Assembly (NCBI RefSeq): GCF_009931435.1
Contig: NZ_CP043414.1
Source: Escherichia coli
GTDB lineage: Bacteria > Pseudomonadota > Gammaproteobacteria > Enterobacterales > Enterobacteriaceae
Strand: one strand, 5' to 3'
Length of the DNA: 64,000 bases
Position numbers and translations under genes: made by a program. This document shows, piece by piece, positions 4,509 through 30,392 of the stretch; position 1 is the first letter of the stretch, and every line of letters begins with the position of its first letter. Under the pieces are notes generated by a model. It was given only the letters and a program-made list of their open reading frames with translations, made no database searches and was not told the DNA's origin.

Positions 4509-5182
4509 CAAACGTTCTGATTGTTGAAGATGAACAGGCTATTCGTCGCTTTCTGCGCACGGCGCTGGAGGGTGACGGTATGCGCGTTTTTGAAGCCGAA
4601 ACGCTGCAACGGGGGCTGCTGGAAGCGGCGACTCGTAAGCCAGATTTGATTATTCTCGATCTCGGCCTGCCAGACGGTGATGGGATTGAGTTTATCCGCG
4701 ACCTGCGCCAGTGGAGCGCGGTGCCAGTAATTGTGCTTTCCGCCCGCAGCGAAGAGAGCGACAAAATCGCCGCGCTGGATGCCGGAGCGGATGATTACCT
4801 GAGTAAGCCATTTGGCATTGGTGAATTGCAGGCCCGTCTGCGCGTCGCATTACGCCGCCACTCCGCCACCACCGCGCCCGAGCCGCTGGTGAAATTTTCC
4901 GATGTTACCGTCGATTTAGCTGCCCGCGTGATTCACCGCAGTGAGGAAGAGGTGCATCTCACCCCGATTGAATTCCGCCTGCTGGCGGTGCTACTCAACA
5001 ATGCCGGAAAAGTGCTCACCCAGCGCCAGCTTCTCAACCAGGTGTGGGGACCAAACGCGGTCGAACACAGCCACTATTTGCGTATTTATATGGGGCATCT
5101 GCGACAAAAACTGGAGCAAGATCCCGCCCGCCCTCGCCATTTTATTACTGAAACCGGTATTGGGTATCGGTTTATGCCATGA
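4505..5182 (+). CDS. kdpE: response regulator KdpE
   Basis: ORF track 4505..5182, 225 aa; GTG start overlapping kdpD stop (GTGA); receiver domain plus OmpR-type winged helix. Confidence 0.93.
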   Translation: MTNVLIVEDEQAIRRFLRTALEGDGMRVFEAETLQRGLLEAATRKPDLIILDLGLPDGDGIEFIRDLRQWSAVPVIVLSARSEESDKIAALDAGADDYLSKPFGIGELQARLRVALRRHSATTAPEPLVKFSDVTVDLAARVIHRSEEEVHLTPIEFRLLAVLLNNAGKVLTQRQLLNQVWGPNAVEHSHYLRIYMGHLRQKLEQDPARPRHFITETGIGYRFMP

Positions 5183-5227
5183 ATTATTATTCAATAAATA
5201 CGCTTAACTAATTATTAATTTATTATT

Positions 5228-5270
5228 AAACCTGCCCCGAAAATTATTATTTGGCAGGTTTAATTTCTTA
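5228..5270 (+). terminator. hairpin with large loop followed by T-rich tract downstream of kdpE
   Basis: aaacctgcc ... ggcaggttt inverted repeat then aatttctt; AT-rich context. Confidence 0.4.
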
Positions 5271-5456
5271 ATGAAAATATAACCTACGAAATTGCAACAT
5301 TTAAACAACAAAACAGCATCTAATATGGCGCTATTCATAATTAACGATTTATTATTTGGGGTGTGATCGTTTTTTGTTGATCTTCTTCACAGTTTATAGC
5401 CTTTTCATGGATAGAATAACTCTACCTTCAACTGACACAGCAAAAGGTAAAGGTAA

Positions 5457-26967: not shown

Positions 26968-27213
26968 TGAACAAATCGCACTTTGTCAGCAATTTGGCCC
27001 CCGTAAAATATAACCATTTAATAAAACCCGCTAAAAATTATCGATTCATCAATAAATACATCCTCACACCAGACCTTTTTTCACCAATCGACAATCACCA
27101 TTACGTTTTTTATTTTCCCCCTGCCAAATCGCTTGCGCACAGTGCTGCTTTGCGGCATTTTTTTAAACAAGCAAACACAACAAGCAACAAATACCAGGTT
27201 AACGGAGAAGGTT

Positions 27214-28878
27214 ATGTGTTCAATTTTTGGCGTATTCGATATCAAAACAGACGCAGTTGAGCTGCGTAAGAAAGCACTCGAGCTGTCACGCCTGATGCGT
27301 CATCGTGGCCCGGACTGGTCCGGTATTTATGCCAGCGATAACGCCATTCTCGCCCACGAACGTCTGTCCATTGTTGACGTTAACGCGGGGGCGCAACCTC
27401 TCTACAACCAACAAAAAACTCATGTGCTGGCAGTAAACGGTGAAATCTACAACCACCAGGCATTGCGCGCTGAATATGGCGATCGTTACCAGTTCCAGAC
27501 CGGGTCTGACTGTGAAGTGATCCTCGCGCTGTATCAGGAAAAAGGGCCGGAATTTCTCGACGATTTGCAGGGCATGTTCGCTTTTGCCCTGTACGACAGC
27601 GAAAAAGATGCGTATCTGATTGGTCGCGACCATCTGGGGATCATCCCGCTATATATGGGCTATGACGAACACGGTCAGCTGTATGTGGCCTCAGAAATGA
27701 AAGCTCTCGTGCCAGTATGCCGCACGATTAAAGAGTTCCCGGCGGGGAGCTATTTATGGAGTCAGGACGGCGAAATCCGTTCTTATTATCACCGCGACTG
27801 GTTCGACTACGATGCGGTGAAAGATAACGTGACCGACAAAAACGAGCTGCGTCAGGCACTGGAAGATTCCGTTAAAAGCCATCTGATGTCTGATGTGCCT
27901 TACGGTGTGCTGCTTTCTGGTGGTCTGGATTCCTCAATTATTTCCGCGATCACCAAGAAATACGCCGCCCGTCGCGTGGAAGATCAGGAACGCTCTGAAG
28001 CCTGGTGGCCGCAGCTGCACTCCTTTGCTGTAGGTCTGCCGGGTTCACCGGATCTGAAGGCAGCCCAGGAAGTGGCAAACCATCTGGGCACTGTGCATCA
28101 TGAAATTCACTTCACTGTACAGGAAGGTCTGGACGCCATCCGCGACGTGATTTACCACATCGAAACCTATGATGTGACCACTATTCGCGCTTCAACACCG
28201 ATGTATTTAATGTCGCGTAAGATCAAAGCGATGGGCATTAAAATGGTACTGTCCGGTGAAGGTTCTGATGAAGTGTTTGGCGGTTATCTCTACTTCCACA
28301 AAGCGCCGAACGCTAAAGAACTGCATGAAGAGACGGTGCGCAAACTGTTGGCCCTGCATATGTATGACTGCGCGCGCGCCAACAAAGCGATGTCCGCCTG
28401 GGGCGTGGAAGCGCGCGTTCCGTTCCTCGACAAGAAATTCCTCGACGTGGCGATGCGCATTAACCCGCAGGATAAAATGTGCGGTAACGGCAAGATGGAA
28501 AAACACATCCTGCGTGAATGTTTTGAGTCGTACCTGCCTGCAAGTGTGGCCTGGCGGCAGAAAGAGCAGTTCTCCGATGGCGTCGGTTACAGTTGGATCG
28601 ATACCCTGAAAGAAGTGGCGGCGCAGCAGGTTTCTGATCAACAGCTGGAAACTGCCCGCTTCCGCTTCCCGTACAACACGCCGACGTCCAAAGAAGCGTA
28701 TCTGTACCGGGAGATCTTTGAAGAACTGTTCCCGCTTCCGAGCGCCGCAGAGTGCGTGCCGGGCGGCCCGTCCGTCGCGTGTTCTTCCGCTAAAGCGATT
28801 GAATGGGATGAGGCGTTCAAGAAAATGGACGATCCGTCTGGTCGTGCGGTTGGTGTTCACCAGTCGGCGTATAAGTAA
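27214..28878 (+). CDS. asnB: asparagine synthetase B (glutamine-hydrolysing)
   Basis: ORF track 27133..28878; start placed at ATG 27214 (MCSIFGVFD..., catalytic Cys2), 554 aa; SGGLDSS PP-loop. Confidence 0.96.
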   Translation: MCSIFGVFDIKTDAVELRKKALELSRLMRHRGPDWSGIYASDNAILAHERLSIVDVNAGAQPLYNQQKTHVLAVNGEIYNHQALRAEYGDRYQFQTGSDCEVILALYQEKGPEFLDDLQGMFAFALYDSEKDAYLIGRDHLGIIPLYMGYDEHGQLYVASEMKALVPVCRTIKEFPAGSYLWSQDGEIRSYYHRDWFDYDAVKDNVTDKNELRQALEDSVKSHLMSDVPYGVLLSGGLDSSIISAITKKYAARRVEDQERSEAWWPQLHSFAVGLPGSPDLKAAQEVANHLGTVHHEIHFTVQEGLDAIRDVIYHIETYDVTTIRASTPMYLMSRKIKAMGIKMVLSGEGSDEVFGGYLYFHKAPNAKELHEETVRKLLALHMYDCARANKAMSAWGVEARVPFLDKKFLDVAMRINPQDKMCGNGKMEKHILRECFESYLPASVAWRQKEQFSDGVGYSWIDTLKEVAAQQVSDQQLETARFRFPYNTPTSKEAYLYREIFEELFPLPSAAECVPGGPSVACSSAKAIEWDEAFKKMDDPSGRAVGVHQSAYK

Positions 28879-28891
28879 GAAATGCGGTACT

Positions 28892-28920
28892 GCCCCGGAG
28901 AAATCCGGGGCTGTTTCAGT
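28892..28920 (+). terminator. terminator after asnB
   Basis: gccccgga gaaa tccggggc followed by tgtttcagtt. Confidence 0.65.
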
Positions 28921-29357
28921 TATTGAGCTGCTTGTTGATTCTGATATGCAGTAAGGAAATGTTCCGGGTTTGCCACATCACTGTTTGACAACTCATCACT
29001 GTAGGCCACCGACCAGGTCGCCTGCTCATCCGGAATATGCAGGCTGCCATTCCCCTCTTTCAGGCGTAATAACTCAAAAGATTTGCCCTTAATTACGGCG
29101 GTATAGGATTTTTCACCTTCCTGTAATGCTTTCACTTTACAGCGAAAAATCTGGCCATCGATGTCATTATCAACATGCGATACCTGAATGAGGGCTTCAT
29201 TAGAGGCTTTCGGCCCTATCCGCATCATCCACACCACAGCGCCTTCCTGCCCACGATAGCCAAAAACATATTTCCCGATTTCCGGTTTGACCGTATCGGC
29301 AAACGCAGATTGCATGAGTAATAACGCCCCCATCAGCGCCGTCATAAAACGCAGCAT
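28920..29357 (-). CDS. hypothetical secreted protein (145 aa, cleavable signal peptide)
   Basis: ORF track 28920..29357; ATG with gaggga 7 nt upstream; N-terminus MLRFMTALMGALLLMQSAFA then DTVKPE (AxA signal-peptidase site); no family recognised by eye. Confidence 0.6.
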   Translation of the reverse strand: MLRFMTALMGALLLMQSAFADTVKPEIGKYVFGYRGQEGAVVWMMRIGPKASNEALIQVSHVDNDIDGQIFRCKVKALQEGEKSYTAVIKGKSFELLRLKEGNGSLHIPDEQATWSVAYSDELSNSDVANPEHFLTAYQNQQAAQ

Positions 29358-29620
29358 AGTATTCCCTCAATAAATCGCCTGAAGTGGTAGCAGAGATGCA
29401 GGCGTAGCGATCCCTGCCCTGTCCTGTTGCAACGGGCCAGTATTTCATAGATTAATTTCCTACCACTATTGTTGAATTCCGAATTTCATCCTGTATGACA
29501 AAAGAATGGCTGTAGGGTGGGGAAAAAACACAAAGTAAACAATAATTGACGAATATAGCGCCACGCTGTTCGCAACCTAACCAAACAGTCACTTTCGAGC
29601 AATTTTCCTTGAAAAAGAGG

Positions 29621-29660
29621 TTGACGCTGCAAGGCTCTATACGCATAATGCGCCCCGCAA
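29621..29660 (+). promoter_or_regulatory. stable-RNA type promoter of the tRNA operon
   Basis: TTGACG -35 (29621-29626), 17-nt spacer, CATAAT -10 (29644-29649), GC-rich discriminator gcgccccgc; tRNA starts ~40 nt downstream. Confidence 0.65.
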
Positions 29661-29688
29661 CGCCGATAAGGTATCGCGAAAAAAAGAT

Positions 29689-29765
29689 GGCTACGTAGCT
29701 CAGTTGGTTAGAGCACATCACTCATAATGATGGGGTCACAGGTTCGAATCCCGTCGTAGCCACCA
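29689..29765 (+). tRNA. metT: tRNA-Met (CAU, elongator)
   Basis: 77-nt cloverleaf ggctacgtagctcagttggttagagcacatcactCATaatgatg...cgtagccacca with encoded CCA. Confidence 0.97.
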
Positions 29766-29773
29766 TCTTTTTT

Positions 29774-29858
29774 GCGGGAGTGGCGAAATTGGTAGACGCA
29801 CCAGATTTAGGTTCTGGCGCCGCAAGGTGTGCGAGTTCAAGTCTCGCCTCCCGCACCA
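29774..29858 (+). tRNA. leuW: tRNA-Leu (UAG)
   Basis: 85-nt gcgggagtggcgaaattggtagacgcaccagattTAGgttctgg... long variable arm, CCA end. Confidence 0.97.
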
Positions 29859-29881
29859 TTCACCAGAAAGCGTTGTACGGA

Positions 29882-29956
29882 TGGGGTATCGCCAAGCGGT
29901 AAGGCACCGGTTTTTGATACCGGCATTCCCTGGTTCGAATCCAGGTACCCCAGCCA
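29882..29956 (+). tRNA. glnU: tRNA-Gln (UUG)
   Basis: 75-nt tggggtatcgccaagcggtaaggcaccggtttTTGataccgg...ccccagcca. Confidence 0.97.
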
Positions 29957-29990
29957 TCTTCTTCGAGTAAGCGGTTCACCGCCCGGTTAT

Positions 29991-30065
29991 TGGGGTATCG
30001 CCAAGCGGTAAGGCACCGGTTTTTGATACCGGCATTCCCTGGTTCGAATCCAGGTACCCCAGCCA
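29991..30065 (+). tRNA. glnW: tRNA-Gln (UUG)
   Basis: Identical 75-nt copy of the UUG tRNA-Gln. Confidence 0.97.
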
Positions 30066-30080
30066 TCGAAGAAACAATCT

Positions 30081-30157
30081 GGCTACGTAGCTCAGTTGGT
30101 TAGAGCACATCACTCATAATGATGGGGTCACAGGTTCGAATCCCGTCGTAGCCACCA
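30081..30157 (+). tRNA. metU: tRNA-Met (CAU, elongator)
   Basis: Second 77-nt copy identical to metT. Confidence 0.97.
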
Positions 30158-30205
30158 AATTCTGAATGTGTCGAATGCGTTCGGCAAATTCACAAACCAA
30201 TTTGT

Positions 30206-30280
30206 TGGGGTATCGCCAAGCGGTAAGGCACCGGATTCTGATTCCGGCATTCCGAGGTTCGAATCCTCGTACCCCAGCCA
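30206..30280 (+). tRNA. glnV: tRNA-Gln (CUG)
   Basis: 75-nt tggggtatcgccaagcggtaaggcaccggattCTGattccgg...ccccagcca. Confidence 0.97.
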
Positions 30281-30317
30281 ATTTATTCAAGACGCTTACC
30301 TTGTAAGTGCACCCAGT

Positions 30318-30392
30318 TGGGGTATCGCCAAGCGGTAAGGCACCGGATTCTGATTCCGGCATTCCGAGGTTCGAATCCTCGTACCCCAGCCA
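30318..30392 (+). tRNA. glnX: tRNA-Gln (CUG)
   Basis: Second identical CUG tRNA-Gln copy. Confidence 0.97.

Follow-up and report, generated by a model that had tools for sequence, protein, structure and literature searches.

Introduction

The described systems closest to the protein analysed here are the PliC/MliC lysozyme inhibitors (PF09864), together with Neisseria ACP and Brucella PhiA, and the calycins, among them the bacterial lipocalin Blc, the avidins, and YceI-like proteins. In PliC/MliC, an SGxxY motif carried on a protruding loop contacts the catalytic residues of lysozyme and is needed for lysozyme binding (PMC8334348). PhiA, which shares the fold and lacks SGxxY, did not inhibit lysozyme (PMC8334348), so that the barrel fold alone is insufficient for lysozyme inhibition. 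Here we describe a gene lying between asnB and the metT tRNA cluster in a 64,000-nucleotide stretch of Escherichia coli DNA (the window, whose positions are used throughout), with a product that resembles PliC/MliC and ACP in predicted fold and location, and in its stand-alone genetics. Its predicted up-and-down barrel of eight strands, with a helix at the C-terminus, and its predicted extracytoplasmic location would also match the calycins, the likeness in this case being one of topology only. We consider it very likely that this is a real gene for an exported barrel protein, acting as a periplasmic binding module, that is ancestral at the locus and has been deleted in K-12.

The gene and its surroundings

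The coding sequence occupies 28920–29357 on the minus strand and comprises 145 codons and a stop, with an ATG start preceded at a distance of 6 nt by a Shine-Dalgarno sequence (GAGGG, 29364–29368, minus strand), the sequence TTGAGGGAATA at this site being kept in alignments with Salmonella and Pseudocitrobacter. Codons 1–20 (29298–29357, minus strand) read as a Sec type I signal peptide, MLRFMTALMGALLLMQSAFA, followed by DT and with the cut predicted after AFA. An MLR n-region containing Arg3 leads into the h-region FMTALMGALLLM and then into QSAFA and the first D of the mature chain, placing an A-x-A motif at positions -3/-1, with no lipobox cysteine. QSAFA is retained among the close homologues, the distant homologues all carry N-terminal hydrophobic leaders, and the AlphaFold2 model has a low-confidence N-terminal helix (residues 2–17) at the signal peptide. 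The stand-alone chromosomal gene would therefore, as read from these features, specify a 145-residue precursor exported via Sec and cleaved to a mature product of 125 residues (computed mass ~13.9 kDa, pI 5.3), predicted to be a soluble periplasmic protein. The open reading frame list and the sequence agree exactly with the original prediction of a minus-strand reading frame furnished with a Shine-Dalgarno sequence and a signal peptide.

The gene is convergent with asnB, the stop of which is at 28878, and between them a terminator scan finds a GC-rich hairpin, the asnB terminator (28892–28911), which lies 14 nt past the asnB stop and 9 nt past that of the gene, and probably serves as a terminator in both directions. 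The mechanically called open reading frame of asnB begins at a TTG at 27133 (27133–28878), with the real start being the ATG at 27214 (MCSIFGV...), which gives the standard 554-residue asparagine synthetase B. On the other side the metT cluster of seven tRNAs is divergent from the gene, its first tRNA-Met starting at 29689, and the asnB–metT spacer of the window measures 810 bp. The promoter of the tRNA operon, a neighbour outside the gene, reads TTGACG-17-CATAAT (29621–29649, plus strand; 10/12 positions matched in a promoter scan) and is invariant in an alignment across four genera. The predicted placement of the gene between the asnB terminator and the metT promoter is borne out by these two features. 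An Rfam scan of the region returned tRNA as the sole match.

Upstream of the gene, an alignment of E. coli, Salmonella, and Pseudocitrobacter reveals a non-coding block (29440–29500, minus strand), including AGGATGAAATTCGGAATTCAACAATAGTG, GGATGAAATTCGGAATTCAACAATAGTG, and GAAATTAATCTATGAAATACTG, that is conserved across genera, with upstream blocks conserved out to Pseudocitrobacter, where synonymous sites are saturated. This block is a candidate promoter or regulator site of the gene, a candidate region for activating the divergent metT promoter from upstream, or both. K-12 keeps the block despite losing the gene, and so the promoter of the divergent tRNAs may be what the block serves, perhaps by way of an activator bound upstream. 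A hairpin of the form GCAGG-N10-CCTGC, seen in the alignment upstream of the reading frame (29398–29417, minus strand) and within the segment deleted in K-12, has identical arms and a different loop in Pseudocitrobacter, and is weak evidence because it shows no compensatory change. A promoter scan found no consensus sigma-70 promoter upstream on the minus strand, and the divergent tRNA promoter may account for part of the upstream conservation; for these reasons, expression of the gene is something that we infer.

Distribution in E. coli and deletion in K-12

The spacer separating metT (end at 697133) from asnB (from 697513) in MG1655 (NC_000913.3) measures 379 bp and contains no annotated feature. 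The original prediction had held that K-12 carries no annotated protein gene between asnB and metT, and that its spacer is roughly 400 bp shorter; both statements are correct, the difference being 810 - 379 = 431 bp. Alignment shows that the K-12 spacer keeps the first 130 bp after asnB and then jumps to sequence beyond position 29439 of the window, so that the missing segment (29009–29439, 431 bp) comprises codons 1–116, the Shine-Dalgarno sequence, and 82 bp upstream. A GGCCA pentamer stands at each side of the deletion junction, at 29004–29008 on the left and 29435–29439 on the right, and one copy is retained in the deleted strains, where CTGTAGGCCA is joined directly to GTATTTCATAG.

The last 89 nt of the gene (28920–29008, minus strand), which are its final 28 codons and stop, remain in K-12 at MG1655 697383–697471, a remnant that translates in frame to AYSDELSNSDVANPEHFLTAYQNQQAPQ and the stop, and they are likewise kept in O157:H7 and UM146. 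Because K-12 retains these codons, the K-12 form is a 431-bp deletion between the two GGCCA pentamers, and the sequence comparison indicates that the arrangement in the window is ancestral, with that of K-12 derived from it by microhomology-mediated loss. The locus thereby resembles other microhomology-mediated gene-loss alleles of E. coli K-12, in which a 5-bp direct repeat bounds the deletion, one copy is kept, and an in-frame 3′ remnant is left, and it differs from them in that the same junction occurs here on two divergent flanking haplotypes.

Four deleted strains share that junction base for base, namely a K-12 derivative, O157:H7, UM146 of group B2, and CEA224S. Over 113 positions of the left flank (compared across window 28879–29008), the deleted B2 strain UM146 shows 2 differences from the intact B2 (ST131, JJ1887) allele and 15 from the K-12 remnant, with K-12 and the window allele differing at 5. 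The occurrence of one junction on two divergent haplotypes, B2 and non-B2, implies either that the deletion is recurrent at GGCCA, or that it is a long-standing polymorphism, with flanks that have since become uniform within each lineage.

Megablast searches of complete E. coli genomes in RefSeq, a collection that over-represents clinical clones such as ST131, found the flanks of the locus in 5424 of 5426 genomes and the full-length spacer in 985. The central 425 bp alone matches exactly the same 985 genomes, every match being single-copy and chromosomal. Carriers thus make up 18% of the complete genomes, and the segment is absent from about 82%, K-12 included; by the explanation favoured here, these would have lost an ancestral gene at asnB/metT through the 431-bp deletion from GGCCA to GGCCA. 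The gene is dispensable in most E. coli. Among the carriers are named ST648 and ST131 strains, for example JJ1887 and O25b:H4-ST131, with an allele of 96.9% identity being the one seen in ST131 (34 of 60 rows in an evenly spaced sample of the megablast ranking).

All 985 carriers annotate the coding sequence in RefSeq as 'hypothetical protein' (e.g. WP_000943486.1), so the gene is already known in that form, and the exact protein of the window is recorded, under the same label, on 880 contigs. A literature search for the RefSeq accession of the protein gave no result. In JJ1887 the locus tag is AX202_RS29730 (609–1046 of the extracted locus), out of numerical order with respect to the neighbours RS03375 and RS03365, which suggests that the coding sequence was added in a later re-annotation.

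The tRNA cluster itself also varies. CEA224S (NZ_CP166080.1, 691432–696986) combines the K-12-type deletion with absence of the entire seven-tRNA metT cluster (window 29689–30392); its metT promoter region runs into downstream terminator-like sequence, with no tRNA annotated between asnB and ubiF, and the explanation could be either genuine loss of the seven tRNA genes or a collapse in the assembly. The cluster holds seven tRNAs in the window and in MG1655, six in the K-12 derivative PG20180053, five in E. whittamii, and eight in Superficieibacter electus, the number changing mainly in the repeated tRNA-Gln units (window 29689–30392).

Conservation outside E. coli

The gene occupies the same asnB/metT position, ~330–350 bp from tRNA-Met, in Pseudocitrobacter cyperus and some Salmonella enterica, and a search for related loci with the close-homologue alignment, covering six species representatives, places it there also in E. 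whittamii, Superficieibacter electus, and Pseudocitrobacter vendiensis. Orthologues are named in addition from E. albertii, E. marmotae, and E. ruysiae. In 16 of 17 aligned homologues the frame is uninterrupted and can be aligned over its whole length, and it is conserved across genera down to 55% identity. Conservation of the frame across strains was the check originally proposed on whether the open reading frame is real, and its outcome confirms that this is a gene and more than a chance reading frame. The Nei-Gojobori method gives a dN/dS of 0.086 when the window gene is compared with a divergent allele from E. coli, and of 0.066 when it is compared with that from Salmonella, with dS between the window and Salmonella reaching 0.86 in the gene and 0.74 in asnB. 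Values of 0.07–0.09 indicate strong purifying selection, with divergence similar to that of the adjacent asnB, a housekeeping gene.

The Salmonella allele is rare (19 contigs), and a second, deeply divergent allele class in E. coli, at 80–90% identity, is found in 4 of the 985 carriers. The allele of OkiPb01715 (910–1347 of its locus), which lacks both GGCCA pentamers, has 85% nucleotide identity to the window and 94% to the Salmonella enterica allele (5001–5438), with its flanking asnB being 97% identical to that of K-12 and 92% to that of Salmonella. This pattern suggests either interspecies exchange or an old dimorphism, and as far as these alignments indicate, allele exchange between species has probably taken place atop vertical descent.

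The original prediction read the gene as a strain-variable islet beside a tRNA cluster, that is, as a horizontally acquired, strain-specific insertion. Strain-variable it is, being present in 985 of 5426 genomes, but insertion is extremely improbable. The low frequency of 18%, the adjoining tRNA genes, the greater closeness of the OkiPb01715 allele to Salmonella than to the window, which suggests some exchange of alleles, and the occurrence of a 55%-identical homologue at another locus adjoining tRNA-Met would all suit an islet. However, the strains without the gene keep its last 89 nt in frame, and in four genera the gene is found at one and the same position, diverging in proportion to phylogenetic distance. 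Furthermore, there is no integrase or tRNA-derived att site; the flanking repeats, direct or inverted, that were looked for gave short chance pairs only, with none of 10 nt or more bounding the segment; the GC content of the segment (0.47–0.48) is unremarkable; and the gene stands upstream of the tRNA promoter, away from any tRNA 3′ end. Ancestral presence followed by deletion is the reading retained here.

The 55%-identical homologue (metagenome contig ERZ27276850 k141_233923, 5001–5447) lies away from asnB, between amiC and mltA, among several small unannotated open reading frames and about 800 bp from tRNA-Met, making it a second case near this tRNA.

A protein family outside Pfam

The original prediction described the product as unrecognised, which holds in so far as no named family was matched, and is qualified by the 880 contigs on which the exact protein was already recorded. 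The window protein gave no match to Pfam at E<=10, none to NCBIfam or PADLOC, and only noise at E>0.03 to PHROGs, whilst 62 aligned family members matched no Pfam family at E<=0.001. Searches of the PDB by sequence and by profile returned nothing significant, the best match (E=0.54), to Neisseria ACP, lying in part over the signal peptide. Pfam scans did not reproduce the label 'DUF4367' that UniRef gives to the orthologue from Pseudocitrobacter.

In a phmmer search of 1.84 billion cluster representatives, 151 relatives were found at E<=1e-3 and 64 at E<=1e-10, mostly of 135–160 residues and aligning over their full length, with named members from Xanthomonas and Mixta. Two giant repetitive matches, P0070 and P0084, were rejected as cumulative low-complexity or repeat matches, and P0076 was set aside by the same reasoning. 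Foldseek comparison with AFDB50 added further genera at TM 0.7–0.87 (query-length normalised), namely Atlantibacter, Yersinia, Pantoea, Brenneria, Kosakonia, Sodalis, Pseudomonas, Dyella, Duganella, and Rhizobium, as well as Pedobacter, Spirosoma, Cytophaga, and Myxococcus, along with one yeast and one nematode entry, all labelled 'uncharacterized', 'secreted protein', or 'lipoprotein'. True homologues among the uncharacterised entries include A0A376LJX6 of E. coli, H5UZC5 of Atlantibacter hermannii, B0RW38 of Xanthomonas campestris ('secreted protein'), and A0A0T9M1N9 of Yersinia kristensenii ('lipoprotein'), which share 32–99% identity, TM 0.70–0.87 (query-normalised), length, and architecture with the window protein, and differ from it in the genomic position of their genes. 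Full-length homology together with the motifs RPE..Y..Y.G.EG, R.GP, D[HN]x[WI]DG, and PEHFLT.YL unites these proteins with that of the window, and on such sequence criteria there is a widespread family of secreted proteins of roughly 140–155 residues, outside Pfam, in Enterobacterales, Xanthomonas, Pseudomonas, Rhizobium, Bacteroidota, and others.

The gene is a singleton in five different housekeeping contexts in the neighbourhoods of distant homologues, with no common partner gene among those examined, and since the neighbours differ in every case, genomic context carries no functional clue. It is very improbable that the protein is an orphan immunity protein, directed against a periplasm-targeting type VI or contact-dependent effector and kept in the absence of its toxin. 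Domain fusions are more informative. The module follows a class III cyclase domain, a transmembrane segment, and a Pro/Ala-rich linker in one relative, a TIR domain and transmembrane segment in another, and a receiver domain in a fungal protein, and it is present as a tandem duplicate in one protein. Its fusion to membrane-anchored cyclase and TIR signalling proteins suggests that it may be an extracytoplasmic binding or sensing module.

Predicted structure and comparison with lysozyme inhibitors and calycins

The AlphaFold2 model, built with the family alignment (mean pLDDT 91.6, pTM 0.80), predicts an eight-stranded up-and-down beta-barrel (strands 27–36, 41–47, 54–60, 70–77, 83–89, 92–100, 103–108, and 113–119) followed by a C-terminal helix (131–144). 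Conservation is concentrated in RPE..Y..Y.G.EG of strand 1 and the 1–2 loop, R.GP....EALVQ of strands 2–3, D-[HN]-x-[WI]-D-G of the 3–4 loop, and PEHFLT.YL of the C-terminal helix. In the model, the loops at one end of the barrel, contributing Y-x-G-x-E-G (strands 1/2), D-[HN]-x-[WI]-D-G (3/4), and G91 (5/6), probably form a recognition surface. The 3–4 loop reads DNDIDG in the Escherichia clade, in contrast to DHxWDG in the wider family, a difference that may mean more than one target for the proposed binding surface.

Foldseek found no match in the PDB at E<=1e-3, with the fHbp barrel, designed barrels, PliC, and avidins ranking together at TM of about 0.4 (query-normalised), a ranking that points to a generic small eight-stranded up-and-down barrel lacking a close solved relative. 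The eight-stranded antiparallel beta-barrel of PliC/MliC is thus also predicted for the window protein, and a conserved loop inserted into an active-site cleft, as in PliC/MliC and ACP, could allow it to inhibit lysozyme, or some other hydrolase of peptidoglycan, in the periplasm. This more specific reading is nevertheless unlikely. Neither Pfam MliC nor Ivy is matched by any of the 62 family members at a cutoff as loose as E<=0.1, and comparison of the family profile with E. coli MliC by hhalign yields a probability of 5%, over the signal peptide only. SGxxY is absent from the window protein, where the nearest string, NGSLH (residues 102–106), lies inside predicted strand 7; some distant family members show SGELY thereabouts, at what may be an equivalent position. 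PhiA, moreover, has the fold yet did not inhibit lysozyme (PMC8334348), and in the Foldseek comparison PliC stands no higher than the fHbp barrel, avidins, and designed barrels.

The window protein is also about 35 residues longer than PliC/MliC, with an extra conserved C-terminal helix (NPEHFLTAYL), and differs from them in having no SGxxY loop, no disulfide (it contains a single Cys), and a TM of only about 0.4. Membership of the PliC/MliC family is ruled out by the lack of both a profile match and SGxxY. Ivy (PF08816) was likewise rejected, with no Pfam Ivy match in the 62 members, no CKPHDC loop, and the single Cys, and the 'Ivy' label on one AFDB relative has no profile match behind it.

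The predicted topology, an up-and-down barrel closed by a helix, would also suit a calycin-like protein of the lipocalin or avidin type, sequestering or sensing a hydrophobic or envelope-derived small molecule in the periplasm; the likeness is confined to topology, and we regard this more specific reading as rather unlikely. The preferred reading is an extracytoplasmic binding module, probably with the loops at one barrel end as its recognition surface. We infer the periplasmic binding or protective function, and any target: the protein is probably a dispensable periplasmic binding module, protective or sensory. Its most likely role is a protective one, as a dispensable binder or inhibitor of some protein that attacks the envelope, or else the binding of a small envelope ligand.

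Implications

Three points appear to be new here, namely the recognition of the K-12 asnB–metT spacer as a deletion scar with an in-frame 3′ remnant, the definition of a family lacking a Pfam model together with its confident barrel prediction, and the presence of the same junction on two haplotype backgrounds. The findings overturn nothing in current understanding. The asnB–metT locus illustrates cleanly that what passes for an 'intergenic region' in K-12 can be the scar left by a deleted gene, and the shared junction on two haplotypes bears on the origin and persistence of presence/absence polymorphisms in E. coli. Because K-12 lacks the gene, it has escaped all K-12-based functional genomics, whilst being present in clinically dominant lineages, with named ST131 and ST648 strains among them.

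With no Pfam model, solved structure, or assigned function, the family offers a cheap and well-defined target for characterisation. A more novel reading, which is quite unlikely, would make the protein the founding member in E. coli of a new and widespread family of periplasmic inhibitor or sensor barrels. If that held, the family could represent, for example, an unrecognised class of inhibitors of host or competitor cell-wall hydrolases, or an envelope-ligand sensor module reused in cyclase and TIR signalling proteins, and a role in host fitness would then explain why extraintestinal pathogenic lineages such as ST131 and ST648 retain the gene when K-12 and most commensal lineages have lost it.
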